Shown here: positions 15,221 through 62,576 of the stretch, piece after piece
How the letters are laid out: each line of letters begins with the position of its first letter
How positions within the stretch are numbered: position 1 is the stretch's first letter
Source of the DNA: an uncultured Gammaproteobacteria bacterium
GTDB lineage: Bacteria > Patescibacteriota > Patescibacteriia > Magasanikbacterales > UBA922
Reading direction: 5' to 3'
Length of the DNA stretch: 64,000 nt
NCBI GenBank assembly: GCA_964374115.1
Contig: CAYJXK010000001.1
Coordinates: 20,790-84,789, forward strand
The notes under the pieces: model-generated
The model's database searches: none
Seen by the model: only the letters and a program-made list of their open reading frames with translations
What the model was told of the DNA's origin: nothing
Program-made: the position numbers and the translations under genes

Positions 15221-15438
15221 TTGTCCTTCTTGCCAGGAAAAGCTTCATTATGGTATTGTACCAATCAATAAATTCATATCGAGTTTTTTCCTCTCGCGCC
15301 ATCCCATCATTTTTTCTTTGTCTCCAAAACCCGCGTGTTGCAGACAGGAAAGATATTGCATTCATTCTCGACCTCGCTATACGTTCAGATATGGCCTACA
15401 GAGTTGCAGGCAAAGAAAAAGTGACTGAATGGCGCTTG

Positions 15439-15473
15439 GGAGAGCGCGTCAGACACCGAAACTCGCTATGAGT
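15439..15473 (+). repeat. Copy 1 of a 35-nt conserved intergenic element GGAGAGCGCGTCAGACACcGAAACTCGCTATGAGT.
   Basis: 34/35 identical to 39772..39806. Degenerate copies of the 3' half lie at 60968..60982 (inverted) and 61157..61174. Confidence 0.6.
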
Positions 15474-15522
15474 CCAATGATTTCATTCTATGATAGATTC
15501 TTCAGGAGGCCGTTTGAACCTC

Positions 15523-18790: not shown

Positions 18791-20083
18791 ATGCCTATCT
18801 TCATCGCCGATCTCTCTTCTCACGTCGAGAAACAAGTTACTCTCAAAGGATGGCTTTATAACAAGCGTTCGTCTGGATCGATCGCATTTTTGGAAATTCG
18901 AGATGGCACAGGGTTTGTGCAAGCAGTCGTCGACAAGTCCACCGCCCCAGAGTCTACATGGGCTGTCGCAGAAACGATTACGCAGGAATCATCTTTGTCT
19001 GTGTCTGGAAATGTGTCTGAACACCCAAAAAAACCTGGCGTGTTTGAATTGCACGTGACAGAACTTATCCTTATTCATATCGCCGAAGAATTTCCTATTG
19101 CCCTGAAAGACCATGGGCCAGAGTTTCTTCTTGATAATCGGCATCTGTGGCTGAGGAGTAAAAGGCAATGGGCAATTCTGCGGATTCGAGATGTGATTGA
19201 GAGCGCGATCCAAGAATACATGCATCAAGAGCGATTTGTCCGCGTGGATTCACCAATCTTTACACCGAATGCCTGCGAGGGAACCACCACGCTTTTTCCC
19301 GTCGAATATTTTGATGAAGGCACGGCCTATCTTGCGCAAACAGGACAGCTCTACATCGAGGCCGCGATTGCCTCGGTCGGGCGGTGCTATGATTTCGGGC
19401 CAGTATTCCGCAACGAAAAATCCAAGACCAAACGGCATCTCGCCGAGTTTTGGATGATGGATGCTGAGGCCGCATTTGTGGAGCATGAAGATAATATGAA
19501 AATTCAGGAAGGCCTTGTGAAATATATTACGAAAGATTGTCTTGAACGGTGCGTGGAAGAATTTCGTATTCTCGAGCGAGATCCGGCGCCGCTTCTTCCT
19601 GTCGTCGAAAAACCATTTCTTCGATATACATATGATGAAACAATAAAAAAATTGCATGAATTAGGATCTGACATCCGTCATGGTGAGGATTTAGGAAACG
19701 ATGACGAGGGCATGCTCACAGAGCATTCAGACGTCCCGATTTTTATTGAAAAATGGCCCAAACAAATTAAACCATTTTATATGCCAGATTCGGAGCAGAG
19801 CGGATATGTCCTCAACAATGATCTTATCGCGATCGAAGGCGCCGGTGAAATTATTGGTGGTTCACAGCGCATTGATAGACTTGATGAGCTGGTTCGACGT
19901 ATCCATGAGGACAATCTTCCACAAAAAGAATATGAATGGTATCTTGATTTACGCCGCTACGGCAGCGTACCTCACTCGGGATTCGGCATGGGGCTCGAGC
20001 GTATGGTGCGTTGGATGAGTGGCGTAGAACATATCCGAGAGTGCATTCCGTTTCCACGGACGATTACCCGATTGAGACCGTAG
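18791..20083 (+). CDS. asnS: Asparaginyl-tRNA synthetase (class IIb).
   Basis: OB-fold N-terminus ([26 protein letters not shown]). Motif 2 [24 protein letters not shown] matches AsnRS (E. coli [24 protein letters not shown]). A bacterial-type AspRS is present separately at 26249. Confidence 0.7.
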   Translation: [430 protein letters not shown]

Positions 20084-20133
20084 AGCCCATCTCAAAAACA
20101 TAAAAATAAGTCCGAAGAAAGTATTACAAGACT

Positions 20134-28086: not shown

Positions 28087-31000
28087 ATGCCCGATGAAAT
28101 TCATAATTTATCCGAAGCCGAGATGGCGGAGAGGAGGATGAAAATTGATGCCACTGGCTCTACAGCAGAACCAGAACAGGCAGAATCATTGCCGTCGGAT
28201 TTGGAAGGAAAATCTTGGCTGATTTTGGAATTTATCAATAAAGATCCGGATTATTTTTTTGAACGATGCAAAAAATTTCATAAAAAAATAGCGATGGAAC
28301 TGCTGGAGTCAGTTGCAGATGGTTCATCCAGTGATACAATTGAAGAATTTTTATTATTACACCTTGATCGTTTTACTGGCCTAGACAAAGAAGTCGCGCT
28401 GATGTTTTTCAACTTTCATAATTTTGACGAACTTAGAAAACAACTCATCGAATATGTTTTTGCCCACCCGGAACATTTTTTTGGTTTTGCTTTGGATAAA
28501 GAATTGGCAATATACCTGTTGAATCAGCACATGTATCACTTTGAGTTAGCCGGTGATTCACTTTTAATTGCACATATTGATCGTTTTACCGGATTAGACA
28601 AAGAGATAGCTTTGCTATTGGTGCGTCAGAAAGAAAAAAAAAGCGTAGAGTACGTTTTGACACACCCGGAGTACTTTTTTGGATTCTCACTTGATAAAGA
28701 AGTAGTCTTAGGATTGTTGGGGAATAAGCTTTCTTTTTCAAAGGGAAAATTATTACTCAAGTTTTTTGATCATTTCAACAATCTGGACAGAGACGTTGCT
28801 TTAGCGATTTTAAAAAATACGACGGGCACAGAACAGATGAATTGCGCCGAGTTTATTCTTTCTCATCCCGAACATTTTGCCGGGCTAACATTTGATCAAG
28901 AATTCCTCTTGCTGATTCATGGTTTAGGTAAGGAAATGGACGTGTTGTGTGATTATATTGATAAATTTTCTGGCCTTGACAGAGAGGCTGCCATAAACTG
29001 TCTGTGGCGGGGCGGCAAAAAATTAGTCACCTATGTTTTTTCTCATCCGGACCATTTCACTGGTTTTGCCCTTGATAAAAAACTGGCGCTCGAAATCACC
29101 TGCCGGTTTGAATATCTTGAACCCTTTGTTGATAATTTTTTGGGATTGGATAAAGACGTTGCGATGAATTGGCTTGGGTGGCGTTCTCAAAGAGATGATT
29201 ATAATAAGACATACGCTGAATATGTCTTATCCCATCCTGAACGTTTTGCTGGGTTCGTTTTAGATGCCAATGTAGGGGATTTAGCGATTTCGTACGACGA
29301 TATAATCTGTAGAACAGAAAAAGTTACACAGCGTATTTTCAAATTTCTTGGTCATTTGGCTGGAGTAAAGCTGAGTAAAGATTTAGCCAAAAAATTTATT
29401 AATAATCATGACACTCTTCAGTATGTTTTAGATCATCCTGAACAATTTGGGGGGTTGGACAAAGAGTGGGCATTTGAACTAATCAAAAAAAGTCGAGTGA
29501 AGATTAGTAACGGTAAGGAAGAGGGTATAGACGGTGCAGAGTATGTTCTATCACACCCTGAATTGTTTAACGGGTTTAGTTTTAATAGTGAGTTGGCGTT
29601 GGCGCTACTCGCCGACGATATAGGTGCAATTGCCCTAGCTAAACATATCGACAAATTCATTGGTTTGAGTAAGGATGTTGCGCTTGGATTGTCAAAATAT
29701 AGATCATATAGAGTCGGATTTAAATGGCAGGATTTAATAATTGCCCATGTTGATAGTTTTGTAGGTTTAGACCAAGAGATCGCGGTTGCTTTAATTAGTG
29801 ACTTTATAGATAATAAAAAGGAAGGTGAAAAATATTTTGCGTATCTCTTTTTGAATCCGCAACACTTTGGCGGTTTAGGCAAGTCCATGGCAATGAAATT
29901 GTTAGCCGATCGAAGGAGTGATTTACTTCTAAAGTATATTGATAATTTCACCGAATTGGACAAAGAAGTGGCACTAGGGTTGCTTCGTACCCGTAAAGAA
30001 GGGACTCTATATGTCCTTTCCCATCCAGAACATTTTTCCGGTTTTGTTTTTGATAAAGAGGTCGCTTTAATTTTAGCTGAGGTAGGCGAGGGTGTGGCCC
30101 ACATAACCGAAGATCAGCTAGCGCAATTTGTTGGCCTAGACAGAGAAGTAGCTGAAGGCTGGCTTTCGGTGCGCACCTCGTTGCCACTGGCTGAGTATTC
30201 CATCTCTCACTCCGAGCGATTTGTTGGCTTTAAGTTGGATAAAAAAACAGCGGACATTGCCTTCTCGGCAGGGCATTGGCAATTAGTCAGGAAATACATC
30301 GATCAATTTAGTGATCTGGATCAACAGACAGCGGAGAAATTTTTTAAGCATGGTGATGACGAGGTAGCCCGGTATGTCCTTGCTCATCCGGATAATTTTG
30401 TCGGACTGAATTTGAATAGGGAGTTAGCTTTGGTTCTTCTTGATACCAAACATGCGGGCGCACTTTCCGATTTTATCCCCCAGTTTACCGGTTTAGACCA
30501 TGGGATAGCCATAAAGTTATTTGAAACAAAAAAGGCTATCGAAAATACCATCAAGAATGCTGATTGTTTTTCCGATTTTGTATTAGGGGAAAGCACTGCT
30601 CAGGTGTTACTGGATTTAGGCCAGCCAGAATTGTTGATAAAATATATGAGCCAGTTCACCGATTTGAATGCTAAATATCTTCACCTTGATCAGCCATTTC
30701 GTGAATATTTTTTGAGTATTTTATCCAGTGGGCAGATTCCAGTGCTTACGCAAGAGGATTATCATTGTCAAGAAGAGTATCATTACATACCAAAGGAGAT
30801 TGACGATACCGAAGATGAAGGGGGCGGAGCTATGAGGGAAAATTTTTTGGAAGAAATTTTTCAAGCCAACCGGGTAGCGGCATTTAATCATACTAAAGAT
30901 TTAAAACTCCCTTCCAAACAATTGTTTTCGGTTGCCCATACATATAATTCAAAAGATGATTTCGAGATATACAAAATGCTCATGACCAACGGATATCTTG

Positions 31001-33093
31001 TCAAGGATATTCTTGAATACAGTTGGGTTTTAAAAAATAAAGAAATAGCCACATTCCCTTCAGAAGATAAATTTCCGTGTGATAAACCTCGCGGTGCTCA
31101 AGAATCTTGGCTTGCGCGCCACGCCTTCCATATCCCCGAAGGTTGGCAGACAAAACGTTTGGGCAGTATTATTTACAATCGTCTTCATACGGGAATCGAC
31201 ACTAACCTTCACGACGCCACGTATTGGCTCAAAGATTTCGACGTTCCTGGTTCTGCCCATGGCACAACATACAAAGATGAGAACGCGGAATTACTTCTTT
31301 TATTGTCGACAATGGATACGCCCGAGAAGATGCGCGCCCGTTTGCCGTCAAATCCCAATCGTTACCGTGAGTTATTTGCGTCGTCAGCCGGCGAGTTAGT
31401 CTATCAAGCCCTATTGCCCTTGGCAAAAGAAGGCCCGGTGGCGATAGAACAGTTGAAATCGAGCATGCGTGACATTCTAAGCCAGTTGGATTCTTCAGAA
31501 GATCAGCAACGACAACTCAAAATCCCTCTACCTAATCTTCTGGAAGAAGTAGAGAACCTGTTAACTAATCTGGCCGCCCGTGCAGAAGAAGAACATAATG
31601 ATATACCAGGGCTCCTCCAACACTTAAAAATTGTCAGCCAAAATCGTACCAGATATATTGATGAAGCTCAGACGTGGGTGCAAACCCATCAATCCACGCC
31701 TCGTTCCCTTCTTCAGGTTGCTTGGACTAATCGGCCTCTCGCTTTATCTGACGGTTGTGCCGATAATCCGCGAGCAATTAAACAGTGGGCTGATATAAAT
31801 ACCCTAAAATTTTCGGTTGCCGAAATGGAGAAAAATGGACGTTTACCAAAAAATTTTTCTATTTCTGATGTGAAAGCTTATACCCCCTGGCTCAACGAAT
31901 TGGTTCGCTGTTACTCCGGTGAAACCGCCGTTCAAACTGTAGCACTTCTCAAAGAGGAGTTTAACCCTGAATATTATATTCCACCCGCAAAAATTGATCT
32001 CGACCACGGTTGGGTCGGGGAAGTTCTCCCCAAGAATGATCCGCGTGGTTTTACGATTGGGTATGATACTGGTTGTTGTATGACGCTGGGTGGAGCGTCC
32101 GAGAGCTGTATTCATGCCGGCTACACTGATCCCTCGTACGGTTTTTTCGTCCTTTACCGCGATGGTCGGCTGTGCGCACAATCTTTTCTGTATACCAACA
32201 CGGGAAAGTCACCCGGAACGATTATCTGCGACAATATTGAAGCTAACGAAGGACGTGATCAGGAAGAGGTTTTAAGACGCTATCAGGAATTTTTTCGAAA
32301 ATATATTCGCCAAGAGCTGCAACGTGACCCGAGTAGTCCTTTTGTTGAGATCAACGTAGGAATCGGTTACACTGAAGTTGGGCTTGATTCGCTTGAGTCT
32401 GCTGATCAGATCCCTATGCCGCTAAAGGAAGGCGAACATATTTATTCGGATGCTAGCGTACAGAAAAAATTATTTAAGCTGGACAATGAAGAAATTGAAA
32501 AAATAAAAGCCGAACATGCCGCCGCTCCGAAAAAACGTCCTCGTCTGCAGAAATTTGAAAACGCCCAACCAATTGAACACCTAAAGCCCAAGACATTTGT
32601 TGATTATCCGGTACCTGAACAGGCCCCCATACTAGCCGAAATCGAAGCGGCGACGTATCCCGAAAACCAGCGTCGCGGCATTACGTTCTTTCAAGAGGAA
32701 CTGGCGCAGTCAGTGGGGAAAAATCTTTTGGTTATTGAACAGCGCGAAGGAAATGAAATTCCGGTCGGGTATGCGCTCGTGAAGGAAATAGACTCGCCCG
32801 ATTCTGGAAAGGTTATACAGATCTCTGAAATTGCCATTGTCGCCGATGCCCAGAAACAAGGATTTGGCAAAGCGTTATTAGGAAGCATTTTAGCAGGAAA
32901 TAGAAGAGGGCCGAGTAATTTTATTGATTTTCACATTAGGGACCAAACGTTTTTCAATGCGTTAAGGCGCAATGAAAAACTAATCACTGAACAGGGATTT
33001 CATGTTATGAGTGACACTATCCAAGGCGACGAACATCTATTACGGCTAAAGAGAAATATCCGACCTGCTACGGGAGAAGTGGATGATGAGTAA
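28087..33093 (+). CDS. Giant (1668 aa) tandem alpha-helical-repeat protein. About 17 alternating ~40-aa repeats are followed by an unassigned Cys-containing central region and a C-terminal GNAT-like N-acetyltransferase domain.
   Basis: Repeat unit pairs h(I/V)DxFxGLDKE(V/I)ALxLL with YVLSHPEhFxGFxLDKE(V/L)ALxLL (aa ~85-830). The C-terminus VGYALVKEI...ISEIAIVADAQKQGFGKALLGSIL matches GNAT motif A. The gene is visibly AT-richer than its neighbours and uses TTA/CTA Leu codons that are rare elsewhere in the window. Confidence 0.75.
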   Translation: MPDEIHNLSEAEMAERRMKIDATGSTAEPEQAESLPSDLEGKSWLILEFINKDPDYFFERCKKFHKKIAMELLESVADGSSSDTIEEFLLLHLDRFTGLDKEVALMFFNFHNFDELRKQLIEYVFAHPEHFFGFALDKELAIYLLNQHMYHFELAGDSLLIAHIDRFTGLDKEIALLLVRQKEKKSVEYVLTHPEYFFGFSLDKEVVLGLLGNKLSFSKGKLLLKFFDHFNNLDRDVALAILKNTTGTEQMNCAEFILSHPEHFAGLTFDQEFLLLIHGLGKEMDVLCDYIDKFSGLDREAAINCLWRGGKKLVTYVFSHPDHFTGFALDKKLALEITCRFEYLEPFVDNFLGLDKDVAMNWLGWRSQRDDYNKTYAEYVLSHPERFAGFVLDANVGDLAISYDDIICRTEKVTQRIFKFLGHLAGVKLSKDLAKKFINNHDTLQYVLDHPEQFGGLDKEWAFELIKKSRVKISNGKEEGIDGAEYVLSHPELFNGFSFNSELALALLADDIGAIALAKHIDKFIGLSKDVALGLSKYRSYRVGFKWQDLIIAHVDSFVGLDQEIAVALISDFIDNKKEGEKYFAYLFLNPQHFGGLGKSMAMKLLADRRSDLLLKYIDNFTELDKEVALGLLRTRKEGTLYVLSHPEHFSGFVFDKEVALILAEVGEGVAHITEDQLAQFVGLDREVAEGWLSVRTSLPLAEYSISHSERFVGFKLDKKTADIAFSAGHWQLVRKYIDQFSDLDQQTAEKFFKHGDDEVARYVLAHPDNFVGLNLNRELALVLLDTKHAGALSDFIPQFTGLDHGIAIKLFETKKAIENTIKNADCFSDFVLGESTAQVLLDLGQPELLIKYMSQFTDLNAKYLHLDQPFREYFLSILSSGQIPVLTQEDYHCQEEYHYIPKEIDDTEDEGGGAMRENFLEEIFQANRVAAFNHTKDLKLPSKQLFSVAHTYNSKDDFEIYKMLMTNGYLVKDILEYSWVLKNKEIATFPSEDKFPCDKPRGAQESWLARHAFHIPEGWQTKRLGSIIYNRLHTGIDTNLHDATYWLKDFDVPGSAHGTTYKDENAELLLLLSTMDTPEKMRARLPSNPNRYRELFASSAGELVYQALLPLAKEGPVAIEQLKSSMRDILSQLDSSEDQQRQLKIPLPNLLEEVENLLTNLAARAEEEHNDIPGLLQHLKIVSQNRTRYIDEAQTWVQTHQSTPRSLLQVAWTNRPLALSDGCADNPRAIKQWADINTLKFSVAEMEKNGRLPKNFSISDVKAYTPWLNELVRCYSGETAVQTVALLKEEFNPEYYIPPAKIDLDHGWVGEVLPKNDPRGFTIGYDTGCCMTLGGASESCIHAGYTDPSYGFFVLYRDGRLCAQSFLYTNTGKSPGTIICDNIEANEGRDQEEVLRRYQEFFRKYIRQELQRDPSSPFVEINVGIGYTEVGLDSLESADQIPMPLKEGEHIYSDASVQKKLFKLDNEEIEKIKAEHAAAPKKRPRLQKFENAQPIEHLKPKTFVDYPVPEQAPILAEIEAATYPENQRRGITFFQEELAQSVGKNLLVIEQREGNEIPVGYALVKEIDSPDSGKVIQISEIAIVADAQKQGFGKALLGSILAGNRRGPSNFIDFHIRDQTFFNALRRNEKLITEQGFHVMSDTIQGDEHLLRLKRNIRPATGEVDDE

Positions 33094-37981: not shown

Positions 37982-38089
37982 TTTTTTGAGAATGAATTCA
38001 TGATCCATGTTTTATCTTGGCATCATCTCATTCCTTTTTTCTTTCCGCCAATAGGCGGAACATAATTCATAATTCACGATTCATCAGGT

Positions 38090-39742: not shown

Positions 39743-39771
39743 TCATTGAACTCATATCATTTTTCCTCTCA

Positions 39772-39806
39772 GGAGAGCGCGTCAGACACAGAAACTCGCT
39801 ATGAGT
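39772..39806 (+). repeat. Copy 2 of the 35-nt element GGAGAGCGCGTCAGACACaGAAACTCGCTATGAGT, located between the convergent parB and rel genes.
   Basis: Same as the previous feature. Confidence 0.6.
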
Positions 39807-39810
39807 TTAT

Positions 39811-41292
39811 TTACTTTTTCGGTAAGACCGATTTGATCCATTCCGTAATGGTTTTTTTTTGTTGTGATTTGATGTGGCCGCGCGCGGTATGGGTTTTGAC
39901 AAATTGGAGCCAATCTTGATTCGGTCCCTTTCTACTTTTGTCCACAATAATCTCTACCACATCGCCATTTTTGAGTTCGGTGCTGAGGCTCGACATTTTT
40001 TCATTGATCAGCGCGGCAGAACATCGGTTGCCGATCTCGGTATGGATATGATAGGCAAAGTCGACCGGGGTTGCTCCTTCCGGCAGATCAATCACATCTC
40101 CTTTTGGTGTAAATACAAAAATACGACTCTGGAGAAAGTCCACTTTCATTTCTTCGAGGTCAGAGAGTTTTGTGAGAATATCTTTTTGAATTTCTGCTAA
40201 TTCTTTTGCCCAGGCAATATCTCGTTTTGGCAATCGTCTTCCGTCTTCGTGATAACGCCAATGAGCCGCAGTTCCATAGAGCGCCTCTTCATGCATCTCA
40301 GGCGTGCGGATTTGGAATTCAATACTCTCTCCTTCTTCACTAAATACCGTGGTGTGAAGGGATTGATAGTGATTCGGTTTGGGTTGTGAAATATAGTCTT
40401 TAATACGACCTTTGAGAGGTTTCCAGATTTTATGAAGAATCCCAAGCGCTCCGTAGCAATCTGCGACGCTCGGAATTACAATCCGAATCGCGACGAGATC
40501 GTATACTTTTGCGACTTGTTGATCTTTTCGGATGAGTTTTTGGTACAAGCTAAAGAGTCGTTTGCTACGCCCCTCAATGGATATGATGGGAATGTGAGCG
40601 TTTTCGATTTCTTTTTTTGCTCGACGTTGCATGTCGTGAAGAAATTTTTCTTTTCCTTTCATTTTTTCGTCACGGATCTGTTTTGTCTCATCGTATTCTT
40701 TTGGGTACACATACTGAAACGACAGATCTTCAAGCATACCTTTCATTTCATCCATACCGAGACGATTCGCGATTGGGGCGTATATTTCTAGGCTCTCGAG
40801 CGCAATCCGGTATTGTTTTTGTGGGGGAAGCGCGTCAAGGGTTTGAAGATTATGGATACGGTCCGCAAATTTGATAATCATGACACGGACATCTTCTGCC
40901 ATGGCAACAAACATTTTTCGTAAATTTTCAAGATATCTCTCTACGCCACGATATTTTAGTTTTCCCAATTTGGTAATTCCCCCAACCATGGAAGCAATTT
41001 CAGAACCGAATTCTTTTTCCACGTCTTCGAGCGTTCTATCCGTGTCTTCTGGAACATCATGGAGAAGTGTTGCCGCGATAATGAGAGGATCAATTTTCAT
41101 GTCTGCCAAGAGATCAGCGGCAGAGAGAGGATGCATGATGTACGGTTCCCCAGATTTTCGGATCTGTCCTTTGTGCGCCTCGGCGGCAAAATCGTAGGCC
41201 AAACGAACCAATGTTGTATCCGCGGTTTTAAGGTAGGTTCCAATCTTTTTAATAAGGGATTCAATTGTTGGTTGTTTTTGGTTCTGTACCAT
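39811..41292 (-). CDS. rel: Bifunctional (p)ppGpp synthetase/hydrolase Rel, short form with HD, synthetase and TGS domains and no ACT domain.
   Basis: HD motif LLHDVPEDT, synthetase motif YQSLHTTV, TGS segment FVFTPKGDVIDLPEGATPVDFAY. Confidence 0.9.
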   Translation of the reverse strand: MVQNQKQPTIESLIKKIGTYLKTADTTLVRLAYDFAAEAHKGQIRKSGEPYIMHPLSAADLLADMKIDPLIIAATLLHDVPEDTDRTLEDVEKEFGSEIASMVGGITKLGKLKYRGVERYLENLRKMFVAMAEDVRVMIIKFADRIHNLQTLDALPPQKQYRIALESLEIYAPIANRLGMDEMKGMLEDLSFQYVYPKEYDETKQIRDEKMKGKEKFLHDMQRRAKKEIENAHIPIISIEGRSKRLFSLYQKLIRKDQQVAKVYDLVAIRIVIPSVADCYGALGILHKIWKPLKGRIKDYISQPKPNHYQSLHTTVFSEEGESIEFQIRTPEMHEEALYGTAAHWRYHEDGRRLPKRDIAWAKELAEIQKDILTKLSDLEEMKVDFLQSRIFVFTPKGDVIDLPEGATPVDFAYHIHTEIGNRCSAALINEKMSSLSTELKNGDVVEIIVDKSRKGPNQDWLQFVKTHTARGHIKSQQKKTITEWIKSVLPKK

Positions 41293-43700: not shown

Positions 43701-45053
43701 TCATTTTGTCAATGTTCCCCGAAGTTCGCCGCTCAGAAACATTGATCCTGTCACGAGAATAATTCCATGCGTTTTCTTTTGTTTTTTTGTGCTCCATGTG
43801 TATGCGTCTGATGGATCAATGAAGCGCCGATAAGAGGATCGTGGGAGTTGTCGTTCAAAAAGTTTTTTTACTGTGGAGAGATCAGCGATACGACGGAAAG
43901 GATTCATCGTATTGCGAGAGATGGCAACACTGCGTGGCCGAAGCTTTGTAAGCAGCCGGATCATAGAGCGAAAGTCTTTATCTTCAGAAAATGAGACAAT
44001 AAGGTGTGTGGATTTGGGAAGTTTTTTTTTCTTTTGTAGGTCAAGAATCGTCCTCACGGTCGCGCGCATTTTATCCGGATTATGCGCTCCGTCAAGAATC
44101 ACCATAGGTTTTTTCGATACGATTTCACAGCACAGTGGTTGCCATGCTCCGCGAAGGCCATCGTGTATCGAAGCGCTCGGAATGCCAAGACTTTTGGCCA
44201 CGTCAATCACAAGACACGCGTTTTGCACCTGGTGGATGCCAGTGGCACGGATGGTATAGCGATGTCCTTTGTGCGTGAACGTCGTGCGATCACGTGTTTG
44301 CGAGAGCATCTGGAATTCGGGACGAATGACCATCAGCCTGGCGTGTTTCTTTGCGCATATATTTCTGATTACAGAAAGCACGCGGGGATTTTGTTCCATA
44401 GTCCACACAGGGCATTGAACGGTGATTATTCCTGCTTTTTCTTTTGCAATGGCTGTTTTGGTAGAGCCAAGAATTTCTGTATGATCAAGACCAATCGTGG
44501 TGATAATCGCGCATTCTTTTTTTGGGATGACATTGGTCGCATCAAATTGTCCACCCAATCCCACTTCCATCACAGCCCAATCCACACCATTTTTGGCAAA
44601 ATAGGTCAGCGCCATAGCGGTCGTGACTTCGAAATACGATGGCACCCCAAACGGACTCTGCTCGAGACAGAGGGTGAGCGCTTTCTTCATTTCGTGAACC
44701 AGAGAAGAAAAATCTTTTTCAGAAATTATTTCATTGTTGATAGACCAATTTTCTCGAATCGTGGTTGGATATGGAGAGATGAAGAGTCCTGTTTTTTTAT
44801 GCGCGTTCACGAGGATAAAAGAGAGATACCGACACACCGATCCCTTGCCGCTTGTGCCCGCGACATGAATAAAGTGTGAGATTTTTTTTTCTGGATTTCC
44901 GAGAAGATCAAGAAGAAATTGTGTCCGTTTGAGATAGAGTGCGTTCCATGTTCGATCATGAAGATATTCCGGTCTCTGGATATTGAAAAGAGAGAGGAGA
45001 AATTGTTCGGCGTTGTTATGTGTGAATGCCACAAGAGTGTGATGAGAGCCCAT
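43701..45053 (-). CDS. folC: Folylpolyglutamate synthase / dihydrofolate synthase (Mur ligase family).
   Basis: P-loop HVAGTSGKGS and DGAHNP motif (VILDGAHNPDKM). Confidence 0.8.
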   Translation of the reverse strand: MGSHHTLVAFTHNNAEQFLLSLFNIQRPEYLHDRTWNALYLKRTQFLLDLLGNPEKKISHFIHVAGTSGKGSVCRYLSFILVNAHKKTGLFISPYPTTIRENWSINNEIISEKDFSSLVHEMKKALTLCLEQSPFGVPSYFEVTTAMALTYFAKNGVDWAVMEVGLGGQFDATNVIPKKECAIITTIGLDHTEILGSTKTAIAKEKAGIITVQCPVWTMEQNPRVLSVIRNICAKKHARLMVIRPEFQMLSQTRDRTTFTHKGHRYTIRATGIHQVQNACLVIDVAKSLGIPSASIHDGLRGAWQPLCCEIVSKKPMVILDGAHNPDKMRATVRTILDLQKKKKLPKSTHLIVSFSEDKDFRSMIRLLTKLRPRSVAISRNTMNPFRRIADLSTVKKLFERQLPRSSYRRFIDPSDAYTWSTKKQKKTHGIILVTGSMFLSGELRGTLTK

Positions 45054-45206
45054 CTCAAAAATAATTTTGAGCCAGTTTCATGGACGTTTTGAGCGAAAAA
45101 AGTGAAAATCGAGGAGGCATACTGGTAGCATGACGACGAGATATGAATTTTTTGCGGCCAAAACGGACGGAACATGAGCCATGAATTATTTTTGAGATGG
45201 GCTCTC
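45044..45206. repeat. Perfect 22-bp inverted repeat pair (GAGAGCCCATCTCAAAAATAAT at 45044-45065; ATTATTTTTGAGATGGGCTCTC at 45185-45206) bracketing the 119-bp folC-dprA intergenic spacer.
   Basis: Seen directly. The left arm overlaps the folC start codon and the right arm overlaps the last codons of dprA. Confidence 0.7.
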
Positions 45207-46331
45207 GTGACTGAGGACGTACATCATACCACCGATATTGCGTACCTTTCCTTTCATTTCCATAAGCGTCATGGTGCTCATCACGCGCGAGCTCCCGAGG
45301 CCTGATTGGTGAATGATTTCATCCATGTGCAAAGGTTCTCTCGAGAGGAGAGGAAGGAGTGCCGCTTCTTCTTCTGATTCAGGATGAATAGAAGGCGCGA
45401 GTGTTTGTTTTATCTCAGAGAGGTTCAACACTTGGAATATATCTTCCGCCGACGTCACAAGGGTTGCCCCCATTTTGATGAGCGTATTTGTGCCACCCGA
45501 TGTCTTTGACGTGATATTGTGTGGGACGGCAAAGACTTCCCGATTATTATCAAGCGCGGATCGGGCGGTAATGAGCGCTCCGGATTTTTCTCCGGCTTCC
45601 ACAACCAGCGTGCCTAAAGAAAGCCCTGCGATAATCCGATTGCGTTCTGGAAAGCTATAGGCCGTGGGAAGGAATCCTGGCGGATATTCAGCAATCACCG
45701 CGCCGTCCGCCGCAATAATTTTTTCTGCGAGAGGTCGATGCACGGCAGGGAAAATCGTCCATCGGTCAATGCCAGAACCAAGAACCGCTATGGTGTTTCC
45801 ACCAGAGGCAAGTGTTGCCGCATGGGCGCATCCATCGATCCCGAGCGCAAGGCCGCTCACAATCGTAAGGCCAGCATGCACGAGCGCAGTCACAAGCTCT
45901 TCCGTGACTTGCTTGCCATAAGGAGAAAATGATCGAGTGCCAACGACAGCAAGCATCGATCCTTTGGCGTCCAAGTTTCCTCTCACAAACAAACAGATCG
46001 GCGGATCATAGGTTTGTTTGAGGAGCGCCGGATACCGAGAGTCTGACAGCGGAATCACGTCTATTCCATGCGCGATAAGCTGTTCTTCGATATTTTTTTC
46101 TATGCATTCATGATCTCTCCAGAAAACGAATTGTTCAATAATATTTGATTCCCAGAGCAATGTTTTTTTGAGTGTATCACTTTTGGCCGACCATGCATCA
46201 TCAAGGGAAAGGCGAGAGGCAATGAGGTGTTGATATCGTCGAAATGTCATTTTTGGAAAATAGGAGAGAAGCGCTTCTTTGGGGAGCATAGCAATGAGTT
46301 TACTCGTCCATCTGCTGTACCGCTTTCCCAA
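45186..46331 (-). CDS. dprA: DNA processing protein DprA (Smf).
   Basis: Rossmann-like core LAVVGTRSFSPYGKQVTEELVTALVHAGLTIVSGLALGIDGCAH. The start may be an internal Met, because the track ORF overlaps pth by 32 nt. Confidence 0.85.
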   Translation of the reverse strand: MGKRYSRWTSKLIAMLPKEALLSYFPKMTFRRYQHLIASRLSLDDAWSAKSDTLKKTLLWESNIIEQFVFWRDHECIEKNIEEQLIAHGIDVIPLSDSRYPALLKQTYDPPICLFVRGNLDAKGSMLAVVGTRSFSPYGKQVTEELVTALVHAGLTIVSGLALGIDGCAHAATLASGGNTIAVLGSGIDRWTIFPAVHRPLAEKIIAADGAVIAEYPPGFLPTAYSFPERNRIIAGLSLGTLVVEAGEKSGALITARSALDNNREVFAVPHNITSKTSGGTNTLIKMGATLVTSAEDIFQVLNLSEIKQTLAPSIHPESEEEAALLPLLSREPLHMDEIIHQSGLGSSRVMSTMTLMEMKGKVRNIGGMMYVLSHESPSQK

Positions 46332-58367: not shown

Positions 58368-60902
58368 CTACACAAATCGAAATCGTCCATCTTTTTTTTG
58401 CAGTGTAACTTTTTCTTTTTTCATCGGCCGTTCTTTATAGAAGTGTACTGCCTCGTGGAGCGCTCGCGCAATGGTGCGTTCGATATGACGCGCTCCCGTG
58501 TCAATCGTGTATCCTTCTTTGGATATCGCTTCTATCGCGCTTTTGTGCACGCGCATGGGGAGAGGAATCGTGGCGCCAAGTGCTTGCAAAAGAAGAGCGG
58601 ATTGTTTTTCAATGATGGCGTGAATGTCTTTGGTTTCAAATGGAGAAAAGATGCAGACGCGATCAATACGGGCTAAAAGCGATTGGCCGAGCTCCTCTCG
58701 AATTTTGTCAAGAATCAACTCGTCACGAAACAAATGCGGTCGAGAACCAATCGAAGATTCTTCAGAAAATCCGAGACCGGCTTGTTTATAATACTCAGCG
58801 CCAATATTGGATGTAAGCACAATCACATTGTGGTGAAAGAGAATTTTTTTGCCGCTACTATCAGTGAGCTCTCCTTCGTCAAGGATTTGCAAAAGCAAAC
58901 GCCGTACATCCGGGTGTGCTTTGTCTATTTCATCAAAAATAATGAGAGCATGCGGGTGTTTTCGGATGCGTTCGATGAATGAATTGCGGTCTTTGTATCC
59001 TACATATCCGGCAGGGGAGCCGAGAAGTTTTGACACCGCGTGACCCTCGCTGAATTCGCTCATGTCGAGGCGAATGCAGGTATCGGGGTCTAAAAATAAT
59101 TCTCGGGCCAGTATTTTTGCTAATTCCGTTTTCCCCACTCCGCTCGGGCCTACGAACAAAAAGGACGCGCGCGGTCGAGGCCGGGTAGACAGACCAAGAG
59201 ACGATTGTTGCAGTGTGGTGACCACTCCGTCTATCACATGATCCTCTCCAATGATATGAGCAAGAAGCGTGCTGCGAATCGCGGCAATACGATCCCAGTC
59301 AGAGCTCATAAGCTGTTCTTCGCGTACCCCCAGCCGATCTGCCAACACCCGCGCCACGTCTGCCTCTCGTACGGTCGCGACCGACCGTCTCTTTTTTCCG
59401 TGTTTCACGCGTGTCAGTTTCGCGATTGCTTTCTCTGCTGTCTCGATTTTTTCTTTCCATCGTATCGCGTCTTCGAGGTGTTCTCCGCGAATGGCCTGTG
59501 TTTTTTGTTTTTCATAGGCTTCCTTTTCTCCCATGAGTCCTCGGAGTACCACATCCGTATCATCTGTTGCATGTGCCGAGGCGACTAAGGCAGATGCTTC
59601 GTCTAGGAGATCTATTGCTTTGTCCGGAAGATAATGATCGTGGATGTATTTCGTACTCAATGTCACTGCTCCTTGAATTGCGGATTCGTCAATCGTAATA
59701 GAATGGAATGTTTCATAATTTTTGGCCACGCCAGAAAGAATACGGATTGTTTCTTCGACTGTGGGTTCCGCAACATCGATGCATTGAAAGCGACGCTCGA
59801 GAGCTGGATCAGTTTGAATATATCGTTTGTGTTCATCAATCGTGGTTGCGCCAATGCAGTGAATCACCCCACGCGCAAGCGCGGGTTTCAGGATATTCGC
59901 GGCATCCATGGTGCCACTGTTCGATCCCGCGCCGACCAGATTGTGTATTTCATCAATGAAGAGAAGAATATCTGGTCGGTCGGCGATTTCATCAATCAGT
60001 TGTTTCAGACGCCCCTCAAATTCTCCGCGATAGATGGTGCCGGCAATAAGAAGCGGGAGATCAAGCGCCAGGAGTTTTTTGCCTCGCACATGCATCGGCA
60101 CGTCGCCTTCGAGAATGCGTTTTGCGAGTCCCTCGACAATCGCGGTTTTTCCCACGCCTGGTTCGCCAACCAAGAGTGGATTATTTTTTTTGCGTCGGGC
60201 AAGAATGTGCACCATACGATCGATTTCTTTTTCTCTTCCCACTACAGGATCAATCGTCTTTTGCACTGATGGGTCTGTGAGATTGGTCGTAAAAAATTCA
60301 AGAGCAGATGGGAGTGAGGGAGCGCTCCGCTTCTTCTTTTTTTCTTTGGCCACCGTTCCTTCAGGAGAGTGATGCGCGTGCTCCCGCACCTCGTCAATCG
60401 CATTGCTCAAATCCTCGACTGCGGGAAAATGGCTGGTGTTGGTAAAAATGGTATTCACTTGTTCGAGGATATCGGCAATGCGAATATGCAACTTCGCGAT
60501 GCATTCATGAAGATAATCGTCTCCTTCCTGAAGAAGCGCATGGAGGAGATGCTCAGTACCCACATAGGTATGTCCATGTTCATAGGCGACGAGCACTGCT
60601 TTTTCGATTACCTTTTTCGCGTGCGCGTTCAATTCAATCGCCATGAGCGTGTTGTAGGTGTCGGGACGCATTTTTTTTTCATGTCGCTCACGGCGTTTCA
60701 TCACATCAAGAACATGTTCGGCATTGCATCCTACTTTTTTGAGTATTTCTGCTCCCACAGATCCTTTTTCTTCTGCAAGCGCAAAGAGAAGATGGAGCGG
60801 AGTGACAGTCGAGGACTGTACATTGGCGGCAACCGTCATGGCCCGGCCAATAGTGTTTTTGAGATGCGTTGACAATTTATCTAAGAATTGAGTGGGTTGC
60901 AT
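58368..60902 (-). CDS. clpC: Clp-family AAA+ chaperone (ClpC/ClpB-type), with an N-terminal Clp_N domain, two AAA modules and a short middle domain.
   Basis: Clp_N repeats. AAA1 motif GEPGVGKTAIVEGLA and AAA2 motif GPSGVGKTELAKILA. The short linker (~70 aa) favours ClpC over ClpB. Confidence 0.85.
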   Translation of the reverse strand: MQPTQFLDKLSTHLKNTIGRAMTVAANVQSSTVTPLHLLFALAEEKGSVGAEILKKVGCNAEHVLDVMKRRERHEKKMRPDTYNTLMAIELNAHAKKVIEKAVLVAYEHGHTYVGTEHLLHALLQEGDDYLHECIAKLHIRIADILEQVNTIFTNTSHFPAVEDLSNAIDEVREHAHHSPEGTVAKEKKKKRSAPSLPSALEFFTTNLTDPSVQKTIDPVVGREKEIDRMVHILARRKKNNPLLVGEPGVGKTAIVEGLAKRILEGDVPMHVRGKKLLALDLPLLIAGTIYRGEFEGRLKQLIDEIADRPDILLFIDEIHNLVGAGSNSGTMDAANILKPALARGVIHCIGATTIDEHKRYIQTDPALERRFQCIDVAEPTVEETIRILSGVAKNYETFHSITIDESAIQGAVTLSTKYIHDHYLPDKAIDLLDEASALVASAHATDDTDVVLRGLMGEKEAYEKQKTQAIRGEHLEDAIRWKEKIETAEKAIAKLTRVKHGKKRRSVATVREADVARVLADRLGVREEQLMSSDWDRIAAIRSTLLAHIIGEDHVIDGVVTTLQQSSLGLSTRPRPRASFLFVGPSGVGKTELAKILARELFLDPDTCIRLDMSEFSEGHAVSKLLGSPAGYVGYKDRNSFIERIRKHPHALIIFDEIDKAHPDVRRLLLQILDEGELTDSSGKKILFHHNVIVLTSNIGAEYYKQAGLGFSEESSIGSRPHLFRDELILDKIREELGQSLLARIDRVCIFSPFETKDIHAIIEKQSALLLQALGATIPLPMRVHKSAIEAISKEGYTIDTGARHIERTIARALHEAVHFYKERPMKKEKVTLQKKDGRFRFV

Positions 60903-60930
60903 ATAACCTATTGTCTATATGATGAGGGGT

Positions 60931-60959
60931 AGTATATACTCTTTGTATTCTCAATTCAA
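60931..60959 (-). promoter_or_regulatory. Candidate clpC promoter (TTGAAT-N17-TATACT on the minus strand).
   Basis: Minus-strand reading cTTGAATtgagaatacaaagagtaTATACTac, about 30 nt upstream of the clpC ATG. Confidence 0.45.
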
Positions 60960-60990
60960 GTAGTATGAACTCATAGCGAATTATCCCTCC

Positions 60991-61133
60991 GCATGGTCAC
61001 GATTCCTTTTTTCTTCCCTCCAAAATCTGCACGCGCAAAACTCAAACCGCATCATAGGCACCCACAGCGTTCTCTACACGCCTGTTTTGCCACTGAGCAT
61101 TGGAGGCGAAAAAAAAAGGAATCGTGACCATGC
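60991..61133. repeat. Perfect 22-bp inverted repeat pair (GCATGGTCACGATTCCTTTTTT at 60991-61012; AAAAAAGGAATCGTGACCATGC at 61112-61133) with a 99-bp spacer in the clpC/pmm divergent intergenic region.
   Basis: Seen directly. Nested inside degenerate inverted copies of the ACTCGCTATGAG motif. Confidence 0.7.
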
Positions 61134-61196
61134 TTCATACAGCGGATACTGCATGGAAACTCGCTATTGAGTTTTATAGCAAACAACTGCTGACAG

Positions 61197-62576
61197 ATGA
61201 CGGTTGAAAGCCAATATATGATTGATCAATCACTTTTTCGCAATTATGATGTCCGGGGGGAATATGGAACCGTGTTGACTGAAGAAGCGGCATACCATAT
61301 TGCTCATGCGTATGCCGCGCTCAAACACCCGCGCACGGTCGTGGTGGGTTCAGATGCACGGATATCATCTCCCACTCTCAAACAAGCTGTGGTTCGGGGG
61401 CTTACCGAGCAAGGGGTGGATGTCATTGATATTGGCCTTGTTTCCACAGACGCGATGTATTTTTCTACATGGTTTTACGGATATGATGGTGGCATCATGG
61501 TGACCGCTTCCCACATGCCGCGTGAGTTTAATGGCCTCAAATTTCTCGCGCTCGATACGCATGGCGTGCTTGCTCCGATTGGCAGAGGGCTGGGAATGGA
61601 AGAATTGGAGAAATTGACTCTTCAATCAGACACAGGACAAAAAGTTACTGCGAGTGGGAATATATCTCGCAAAGACATCTGGGATGATTTTGTCCGTTTT
61701 ACCCACGAATTCGTGGATGTTGGCGCTATCAAACCACTTCATGTCGTGATGGACGCGGGAAACGGTATGGGAGGATTCGTCGCTGATAAAGTATTTGCCG
61801 GCCTGCCACTTTCGATCGAGCGTTTGTGTTTTGAACCAGACGGCAATTTCCCCAATCATCCGGCCAATCCCATTCTCGAAGAGAATCGAGTGGATAGTAT
61901 TGAAAAAGTGAAAGCCACCGGCGCTGATCTTGGTGTCGCGTGGGACGCAGATTGTGACAGGGTCTATTTTATTGATGAAAAAGGGAATTTTGTTCATGGG
62001 GATTTTATCGCAACGCTCCTGGCGCTCCACATATTAAAAAAACATCCTGGAGAAGGTATTGTCTATGATCTTCGGTTTAGTCGGGCACTCAAAGATTGGG
62101 TCGGGAAAGCAGGAGGGATCCCGCACATGAGCCGCGTGGGGCATACCTACATCAAACATCACATGTACGAGACCAAGTCGATCTTTGGCGGAGAAATAAG
62201 CGGCCATTATTATTTTGCCAGAAACAAATATATGGAAAACGGGTTCGCGCCCGTGCTTATGATTATGGAAATGATGTCGGCACAGGACAAAACACTCTCT
62301 GAGTTGGTACGGGATCTCGGTTCTTATTATATTTCTGGCGAAATGAATTTTCCTGTCAAAGATACAACGGCAGTGATCCGGGCGTTTGAAGAAACATATC
62401 AAAATGGACATCTATCGAAACTAGATGGCTTGAGTGTCGAATTCGCAGATTGGCATTTTAACGTGCGCCCATCGGCGAACGATCCGGTGCTGCGCCTCAC
62501 GCTTGAGGCGACAAGCCCCGCGCTTCTTGACGAAAAGAAAAAAGCAATCATCTCTGTCATCGAGTCGTTCGTATAA
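61197..62576 (+). CDS. Phosphomannomutase / phosphoglucomutase (alpha-D-phosphohexomutase).
   Basis: Active-site TASHMP(REFNG) and metal-binding DADCDR motif. Confidence 0.9.
   Translation: MTVESQYMIDQSLFRNYDVRGEYGTVLTEEAAYHIAHAYAALKHPRTVVVGSDARISSPTLKQAVVRGLTEQGVDVIDIGLVSTDAMYFSTWFYGYDGGIMVTASHMPREFNGLKFLALDTHGVLAPIGRGLGMEELEKLTLQSDTGQKVTASGNISRKDIWDDFVRFTHEFVDVGAIKPLHVVMDAGNGMGGFVADKVFAGLPLSIERLCFEPDGNFPNHPANPILEENRVDSIEKVKATGADLGVAWDADCDRVYFIDEKGNFVHGDFIATLLALHILKKHPGEGIVYDLRFSRALKDWVGKAGGIPHMSRVGHTYIKHHMYETKSIFGGEISGHYYFARNKYMENGFAPVLMIMEMMSAQDKTLSELVRDLGSYYISGEMNFPVKDTTAVIRAFEETYQNGHLSKLDGLSVEFADWHFNVRPSANDPVLRLTLEATSPALLDEKKKAIISVIESFV

Follow-up and report, generated by a model that had tools for sequence, protein, structure and literature searches.

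Proteobacteria, Firmicutes and cyanobacteria are well known to harbour small palindromic mobile repeats. Among the described kinds, MITEs are small non-autonomous mobile repeats (reviewed in PMC10969869 and PMC2229807). The Correia elements of Neisseria (CREE/NEMIS) are about 100–155 bp long, carry inverted repeats of about 26 bp at their ends and are often found near promoters and inside 5' leaders, and they supply or alter promoters; when transcribed they form a long duplex that RNase III can cut or protect, which can change the expression of the adjacent gene (PMC2649163). ERIC copies alter mRNA decay (PMC10969869), and REPINs, which are paired inverted short REP units with a short spacer, are mobilised by RAYT transposases (PMC3116915). 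A full-text literature search returned no report of such repeats in Patescibacteria (CPR), and the 2024 MITE review is silent on this phylum.

The DNA analysed here (the window, 64,000 nt of a Magasanikbacteria-like genome) contains a clpC-like AAA+ chaperone gene (58368–60902, minus strand, ATG at 60902) that stands back to back with pmm, a gene of the phosphomannomutase/phosphoglucomutase (PGM/PMM) family (61218–62576, plus strand). The true pmm start is likely the ATG at 61218, which gives the protein start MIDQSLFRNYD as in homologues, and not the ATG at 61197; with this start the clpC–pmm spacer is 315 bp long.

Most of this spacer is occupied by a nested inverted repeat, called copy A below. 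As the original prediction had it, there are exactly two sites of the 22-mer GCATGGTCACGATTCCTTTTTT in the window, 60991–61012 on the plus strand and 61112–61133 on the minus strand, with 99 nt between the perfect arms; the window contains no third site even with three mismatches, and none of 100 shuffles had two matches. The arms extend to 26 nt with 96% complementarity (60991–61016 and 61108–61133), and a shift of the register by one base adds seven more pairs (61017–61023 and 61100–61106). By our reading of the sequence the full inner stem comprises 32 pairs, a C:A mismatch (61013:61111) and a bulged C (61107), and once the stem is extended in this way a loop of 76 nt is left. The predicted flanking copies of the motif ACTCGCTATGAG were found as well, at 60970–60981 (minus strand, one mismatch) and at 61160–61172 (plus strand, with a 1-nt insertion, an extra T); these two inverted copies pair in the fold and form the outer stem of copy A.

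From left to right on the plus strand, copy A consists of six parts. The left half of the outer shell (60967–60990) comprises GAACTCATAGCGAAT, the reverse complement of the ACTCGCTATGAG motif, and TATCCCTCC; it pairs with 61156–61175 and is homologous to the left ends of two further copies described below, A3 and the short copy. The left arm of the inner hairpin (60991–61023) has 22 nt of perfect pairing followed by ten pairs broken by one mismatch, the 76-nt loop (61024–61099) is free of promoter-like sites and shares 68% identity with that of another copy, A2, and the right arm (61100–61133) carries a GGAGG and the bulged C. An asymmetric right-hand spacer (61134–61155) with a small local hairpin, TTCATACAGCGGATACTGCATG, follows; A3 and the short copy have GCGCGTCAGACAC in its place. 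The right half of the shell (61156–61175, GAAACTCGCTATTGAGTTTT) holds the motif copy with the inserted nucleotide. The size of copy A is thus about 209 bp (~60967–61175), and its true right end may lie as far as ~61209.

Terminal inverted repeats are present at two levels, namely the inner arms of 32 bp (22 of them perfect) and the outer shell arms, which are inverted AACTCGCTATGAGTT. The ends read GCATGG.../...CCATGC for the inner and GAACTC.../...GAGTT for the outer repeat. A U-rich tract, GAGUUUUAU, is located downstream of the outer stem on the plus strand. Copy A contains only short ORFs, of at most 44 aa inside the hairpin, and an exact look-up of the 44-aa loop ORF returned no record. 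The ATG in the right arm (61130), which had been said to open a 24-codon ORF ending just before pmm, is indeed there; the ORF (MLHTADTAWKLAIEFYSKQLLTDDG, 61130–61207, plus strand) has 25 codons, however, and it overlaps the ATG of the longest pmm ORF (61197), ending 11 nt before the ATG at 61218. In our reading of the sequences no equivalent exists in the other family copies, and this ORF is probably fortuitous.

Folding of both strands agreed with the expectation that the arms pair. The 241-nt region around copy A folds as RNA at −89.9 kcal/mol on the plus strand (z −9.1) and at −107.1 kcal/mol on the minus strand (z −9.0), and for the inner hairpin, treated as DNA, the value is −42.7 kcal/mol (z −10.4).

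The putative promoters of both genes lie outside the element, in host DNA, and share a palindromic −10 core, TAGTATATACT (60930–60940), which reads TATACT on both strands. The clpC promoter TTGAAT-N17-TATACT named in the original prediction was recovered as a promoter-like site on the minus strand (60959–60931; predicted start near 60924), and a pmm promoter-like site, TTGTCT-18-TATACT, was found on the plus strand (60911–60940; predicted start near 60947). The core is also present in the spacers of the relatives L039, L032, L035, L013 and L053, flanked there by TTGnnn −35 boxes 17–18 nt off on either side: the clpC-side sites of L039 and L032 are TTGCAA/TTGAAA-17-TATACT, the relatives' pmm-side sites are TTGCTC/TTGCCC-17/18-TATACT, and the pmm ATG of L039 and L032 follows just 27–31 nt past the core. 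Copy A hits neither core promoter. On the pmm side it starts about 20 nt into the predicted transcript; on the clpC side it stops just short of the −35 box, about 43 nt upstream of the predicted start.

This arrangement bears on the earlier suggestion of a long stem-loop in a clpC or pmm leader, for example a thermosensor-like element of a heat-shock chaperone. Since the conserved clpC promoter lies between copy A and clpC, the clpC transcript does not include the element, which sits upstream of the −35 box. A stem of about 32 bp with a fold of about −86 kcal/mol would also be much too stable to melt in the physiological temperature range. No start codon comes closer than about 100 nt to the GGAGG inside the hairpin; that of pmm is about 115 nt away from it, and the hairpin ends at least 42 nt before the pmm ATG. 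The idea of a clpC leader or thermosensor is rejected, and with it the case for a heat-shock RNA switch in clpC/pmm biology is removed. The pmm half of the suggestion fared better: at about +20 of the conserved pmm promoter-like site copy A should be co-transcribed with pmm, and its position in a predicted pmm leader of about 270 nt is plausible, judging by promoter-like sites conserved across species. Such a position could well be a consequence of the insertion described next, but not a sign of a thermosensor.

A search with ClpC as the query identified 80 loci in species-representative genomes, mostly titled Candidatus Magasanikbacteria or Patescibacteria. The best ClpC identity among these loci is only 50%, and the closest Pmm relative is 66% identical. 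The divergent clpC/pmm order is found in 60 of the 80 loci, and the median spacer of these syntenic relatives is 92 bp, versus 315 bp in this genome. Of the seven relatives closest in Pmm, six have a spacer of 47–138 bp; in the remaining one, L003, other DNA lies between the genes. The comparison of relatives for presence or absence of the element, which had been proposed along with the prediction, gave a uniform answer: copy A is absent from all 60 syntenic relatives, as a comparison between species. The spacer without ~60966–61175 would be about 105 bp long, a normal size, with the TAGTATATACT core and the flanking −35 boxes intact. Read from these comparisons, copy A is DNA inserted into an ancestral clpC–pmm control region of about 100 bp.

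Those relatives in which the clpC–pmm spacer is unusually long have long hairpins of their own there, which are not homologous to copy A: L030 (spacer 219 bp, hairpin z −5.8), L011 (227 bp, z −6.5), L040 (259 bp, z −4.4), L078 (285 bp, z −6.9) and L010 (163 bp, z −5.3). These insertions are located in the clpC leader or, like copy A, in the pmm leader. The hairpin is missing in sister species (L030 versus L026, L078 versus L051, L040 versus L022), and the spacer segments that the sisters share are about 86–94% identical, on either side of the promoter core. As the hairpins are unrelated and the sister sites empty, hairpin insertion is a recurrent, lineage-specific trait of the clpC–pmm spacer. 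Either this spacer is one of the few places that tolerate hairpin insertions, or hairpins are useful there. Long inverted repeats are rare in the relatives, whose 717 kb of DNA has four, all of them weaker, versus two in the 64-kb window.

The 22-bp arm has no exact third copy, but diverged copies of the whole element do exist. In the ~74 kb examined (the 64-kb window and a further 10 kb to its right), a count for this part and not for the whole genome, we found three long copies (A, A3 and A2), one short copy and one fragment, all of them intergenic and all in the same orientation (plus strand). A3 (15266–15484) is of the long form and has the same three-tier nested hairpin; it begins at the predicted +1 of a promoter-like TTGCCA-18-TATTGT site (15230–15259) and is followed by a small ORF, an htrA-like gene and pyk. 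Its folding z-scores are −3.7 and −4.1. A2, a decayed long form found via a 19-nt match, is located about 5.3 kb beyond pmm on an independent contig of the same genome; its sequence is ATTCCTTTTTCTTCCCTCCAAAAT...TTGGGGGCAAAGAAAAAAAGAAT, with a AGCGAGTTTCC motif on its left. It lies between two minus-strand genes, antisense to both, and folds no better than shuffles (z about 0). The short form (39744–39818) is a shell without the inner hairpin, situated between the convergent parB and relA/spoT genes, and the fragment (38021–38078) is a weak match (E 0.13–0.21) to the inner left arm (ATTCCTTTTTTCTTTCCGCC...). No further copy was found in the 10 kb to the right of the window.

Profile searches with nhmmer recovered A, A3 and A2 at E-values of 1e-45 to 1e-59 and the short form at 4e-5 with the full profile and 3.6e-18 with a shell profile; the shell profile matched copy A as one hit (60966–61180, E 7e-12), that is, as a shell with an internal insertion. 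The alignment of the copies shows modules in common. The long form has about 215 nt and the short form about 70 nt, and the tiers are an outer shell of inverted AACTCGCTATGAGTT, a middle stem and, at the apex, an inner T-run/CCTCC...GGAGG/A-run hairpin. A candidate for a further module on the right, CAG..G..TTGAA..C, directly precedes the start codon of the downstream genes; MAFFT aligns it inconsistently. Identity between copies is 52–81%; the copies are old and diverged, and there is therefore no sign of recent transposition.

Outside this genome the family left no trace in the collections searched: nhmmer found no copy in the relatives' loci (717 kb), the 22-mer arm had no match in metagenome contigs, plasmid and phage collections contained nothing similar, and 5,426 complete E. 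coli genomes gave no match in a distant-mode search. Two viral matches to an 18-mer of the arm were discarded as chance hits, lying in dense sequence with no partner arm. A 19-mer of the inner stem had 66 metagenome matches, all of which lack the right arm; in many of them the string stands directly after CAT, so that its reverse complement is a GGAGGG ribosome-binding site followed by ATG. Rfam at the gathering threshold identified three tRNAs only in the whole window, and permissive E-values gave nothing better than E = 0.6 at copy A and nothing at A3 or at element B, another hairpin of the window. The genome carries at least two hairpin families.

The copy A family shares with MITEs its small size (~70–215 nt), the lack of coding capacity, terminal and internal inverted repeats, dispersed intergenic copies in long and short variants, an orthologous site that is empty in related species and, for copy A, predicted co-transcription with the adjacent gene. 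Unlike MITEs, it comes without a detected target-site duplication and without a known cognate IS or transposase, and it is old and diverged, with no recent burst and one orientation only. As in Correia elements, copy A is bounded by inverted repeats and is found near promoters and in a predicted 5' leader; it differs from them in having no TA duplication and no promoter-like hexamers at its ends, in its nested architecture of shell and inner hairpin, and in the phylum of its host. To our knowledge, its ends bear no sequence similarity to the Correia repeat. The resemblance to ERIC lies in the imperfect palindrome, the similar size, the location in transcribed intergenic regions and the existence of variants that differ by internal segments, whereas homology (in the E. 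coli search), a high number of copies and a host outside the CPR are not shared. REPINs are likewise made of hairpin-forming inverted repeats that are dispersed in intergenic DNA and evolve within a genome, but the arms of copy A are longer, its loop has 76–99 nt and no RAYT-like gene was found in the window. Taken by analogy, the family is likely to be similar to MITE, ERIC and Correia elements both in anatomy and in its probable consequences.

The suggestion that copy A is a MITE-like insertion is borne out in so far as it is extra DNA relative to 60 relatives, belongs to a dispersed family and has counterparts in the unrelated hairpin insertions of relatives, whose sites are empty in sister species; the enzymatic hallmarks are another matter. 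Neither the inner nor the outer boundaries, which are not sharply defined, are flanked by a direct repeat in A, A3, A2 and the short copy, and the CATG inside the arm ends says nothing about target-site duplication because it is palindromic. Of the Pfam-matched ORFs in the 64-kb window, none has a transposase, recombinase or RAYT-like (Y1 transposase) domain, and two of the flanking genes just past the window contain no transposase or recombinase either. The Pfam-matched ORFs represent a large surface-type protein or housekeeping-type genes (ftsA/Z, nrdR, htrA, pyk, aaRS, parAB, relA, topA, dprA, pth, der, recG, radA-like and others); several ORFs have no Pfam match. Strict MITE membership is unproven, because neither a target-site duplication nor a mobilising enzyme was found.

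We put the probability at roughly 0.6 that copy A is a member of a new, lineage-specific family of palindromic repeats of the MITE/ERIC/Correia kind in a Magasanikbacteria-like (Patescibacteria/CPR) genome. It is probably selfish DNA of a familiar general type and not a heat-shock RNA switch. The folding z-scores of −9 (A), about −4 (A3) and about 0 (A2) point to copies that differ in age and decay and not to a uniformly constrained RNA, and this gradient from a pristine to a decayed copy fits a selfish repeat better. The family would spread or persist as a non-autonomous DNA element that depends on an enzyme from elsewhere in the genome, acting in trans, for its mobilisation, or else it may be the relic of such an element. 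The insertion of copy A would have lengthened the pmm leader, so that the element is transcribed with pmm; double-strand-specific RNases might then attack the long duplex, or the hairpin might stabilise the mRNA or act as a roadblock, and any effect on clpC would arise only through displacement of the DNA upstream of its −35 box. If so, the reduced, gene-dense genomes of CPR bacteria are also colonised by palindromic repeats, which survive in leaders beside promoters. Besides the lack of a target-site duplication and of a transposase in the window, and the age of the copies, three further observations count against this MITE-like reading: all copies have a single orientation; a predicted transcription start lies no more than about 20 nt from the beginning of two long copies, a placement that could just as well mean a role at the RNA level; and the stems within copies pair better than the divergence between copies predicts, with some double-sided changes, which could reflect selection on structure.

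These observations are the substance of an alternative that we consider unlikely, in which the family is a structured 5'-leader RNA, cis-regulatory or stabilising, that tunes the stability or translation of the pmm mRNA and of the small-ORF/htrA/pyk mRNA. A and A3 are sense-oriented and start at about +20 and +1 of promoter-like sites, and the independent gains of hairpins in the clpC/pmm leaders of several relatives could represent convergent selection. The stems pair better than the between-copy identity of about 65% predicts. When the fold of copy A is projected on the alignment, 75.8% of the cells are paired, versus about 45% with the partners slid by 1–3 columns. RNAalifold gives 38 consensus pairs, eight of them with double-sided changes, and the projected structure has nine. 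This covariation is not significant, however, in a test on three copies with a structure derived from one of them (A): nine were observed, whereas shuffles gave 6.2 ± 1.8, and at least nine were seen in 53 of the 500. The wobbles favour neither strand (on the plus strand a C:A pair in A corresponds to U.G in A3 and A2), the structure is lost in A2, which is antisense to its neighbours, and the short copy lies between convergent genes. Furthermore, the element is missing at the clpC–pmm locus in all relatives, and a near-perfect 32-bp duplex is atypical of regulatory leaders.

The hairpins of the relatives also invite a bolder proposal, namely that Magasanikbacteria repeatedly recruit unrelated palindromic cassettes as useful 5'-leader modules which balance the back-to-back clpC/pmm promoters. 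We regard this as a long shot. Were it true, the cassettes would act as mRNA stabilisers or RNase III gates or would be variable or invertible, and the copy A family would be domesticated and selected for its structure, not junk.

Selection might alternatively act on a short piece of the element. The palindrome ACTCGCTATGAGT could be the operator of a transcription factor, for example a stress regulator of clpC and htrA, the large hairpin being incidental. The motif is a 4-5-4 palindrome that lies near −50 of the clpC promoter and also precedes the htrA-like operon and pmm, and a 37-mer that contains it is identical at 35 of 37 positions between two copies, the rest of the elements having diverged. 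This is improbable, since one exact motif copy lies between the convergent parB and relA/spoT genes, where there is nothing to regulate, the motif always occurs inside the larger repeat unit, and the clpC promoters of the relatives lack it. We know of no match between ACTCGCTATGAGT and the consensus of CIRCE, the CtsR box or HAIR. The motif (ACTCGCTATGAGT/ACTCGCTATGAG) was also considered as a promoter element and rejected in reading the sequences: its spacing to −10-like hexamers is inconsistent among the copies.

The chances are slim that clpC and pmm flank a separate gene for a small RNA, such as a 6S-like or an antisense RNA, although the fold is very stable on both strands and the U-rich tract follows the outer stem on the plus strand. 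Such a gene would have no promoter of its own, because on the plus strand the hairpin is preceded by a single promoter-like site, the conserved one of pmm; no terminator-like site was found at the locus, Rfam had no match at permissive thresholds, and the family is multi-copy, diverged, decaying and absent in the relatives.

Equally slim is the prospect of an invertible or hypervariable DNA switch, in the manner of an inverton, whose inter-arm segment would invert or differ from cell to cell and thereby alter clpC or pmm expression. Long inverted repeats around a segment of about 100 bp between divergent genes are what such a switch would look like. It might also be suggested by public data: in three runs, Logan contigs agree with the window at about 100%, with 0–2 mismatches each, and independent assemblies end reproducibly at copy A, A3 and element B. 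At copy A, contigs end at 61013 in two samples (the left arm plus 1 nt) and, on the right side, at 61130 and 61201 in one sample each; at A3 they end at 15427 in two samples, and at element B at 45176 and 45166 in one sample each. These ends miss the positions of a simple inversion by 1–2 nt (A and A3) and by 8 and 18 nt (B), and equally reproducible ends occur at sites without a hairpin (10081 in three samples, and 14122). No sigma-70-like promoter site exists within 61013–61111, the core promoters lying outside (60911–60959), and no invertase or recombinase was found in the window. The reproducible contig ends at hairpins could be due to strain heterogeneity or to an effect of the hairpins on sequencing or assembly.

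That copy A is itself an assembly artefact, a fold-back chimera in a metagenome-assembled contig, is hardly credible: no independent assembly spans 61014–61129, but the left flank with the whole left arm, and the right flank, are confirmed at 100% identity by independent assemblies, homologues of the loop and arms exist at other places in the genome, in A2 and A3, two independent assemblies run straight through A2, and copy A lies in the middle of a contig with a reported length of 118,827 nt. Logan contigs read through the short copy as well. Since the hairpins of this genome coincide with the ends of public contigs and lengthen 5' leaders, they matter for the assembly and annotation of CPR genomes.

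The divergent clpC and pmm genes are preceded by back-to-back promoter-like sites that have one palindromic -10 box, AGTATATACT, in common (window 60911-60959). The box is a conserved feature of Magasanikbacteria and is flanked on both sides by a -35 box at a distance of 17-18 nt; relatives with the core include L039, L032, L035, L013 and L053, in which it lies in the spacer directly upstream of position ~4001 (1098 in L039). Such an arrangement implies that RNA polymerase binding at the two predicted promoters would be mutually exclusive.

The clpC-pmm spacers of other Magasanikbacteria contain long hairpins of their own (100-210 nt), which are non-homologous: L030:1964-2184, L011:3773-4001, L040:3741-4001, L078:3700-3986 and L010:2222-2386. 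These hairpins are missing in the sister species L026, L051/L046/L052/L074 and L022, the spacer segments being 86-94% identical.

In the inner stem at the apex of element A, the nested palindromic repeat between clpC and pmm, an anti-Shine-Dalgarno-like CCCTCC is paired with GGAGG (window 61100-61133 and 61013-61023). As many as 66 unrelated metagenome contigs contain the reverse complement of the inner-stem string, ATTTTGGAGGGAAGAAAAA, and a large share of them have it at a ribosome-binding-site-like position directly 5' of ATG; the resemblance of ATTTTGGAGGGAAGAAAAA to a ribosome-binding site before ATG explains these chance matches.

Within the element A family, the 37-mer GGAGAGCGCGTCAGACAC[C/A]GAAACTCGCTATGAGT (window 15438-15474 and 39772-39808) is identical at 35/37 positions between A3, another long copy, and the short copy, which consists of the shell without the inner hairpin; the rest of the elements is far less conserved. 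A sequence resembling the 37-mer, GAGCGCGTCAAACACATAATACTCGCT, occurs antisense within pheS ~8.5 kb beyond pmm (locus L161, beyond the window; reverse complement, 8512-8564).

A second long hairpin, element B (window 45039-45211; arms of 25-28 nt, loop of 117 nt), is unrelated to element A, has a fold z of -9.0 and yielded no match in Rfam. It sits precisely at the junction of dprA with a Mur-ligase-family gene: the last eight codons of dprA, together with its stop codon, come from the right arm, and the annotated ATG of the Mur-ligase-family gene falls in the left arm. GTCACGA is common to element A and one arm end of element B, and a 17-mer from an element B arm is found again at 20082-20098.

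Public assemblies built independently for the same population have contigs that stop at identical bases in different samples (window 61013, 61130, 61201, 15427, 45166/45176, 10081 and 14122). These reproducible ends coincide with the hairpin elements, but also with two non-hairpin sites; possible causes are heterogeneity among strains and an influence of hairpins or low-complexity sequence on sequencing or assembly.

Two large ORFs, a giant one (window 23-9115; 3030 aa inside the window and extending upstream beyond it) and one of 1668 aa (28087-33093), encode large surface-type proteins of the kind typical for CPR bacteria. In the overlapping public contig (L158:1-9916) the product called for the giant ORF has 4059 aa, with weak matches to T4SS-pilin, BNR and Big-like domains.
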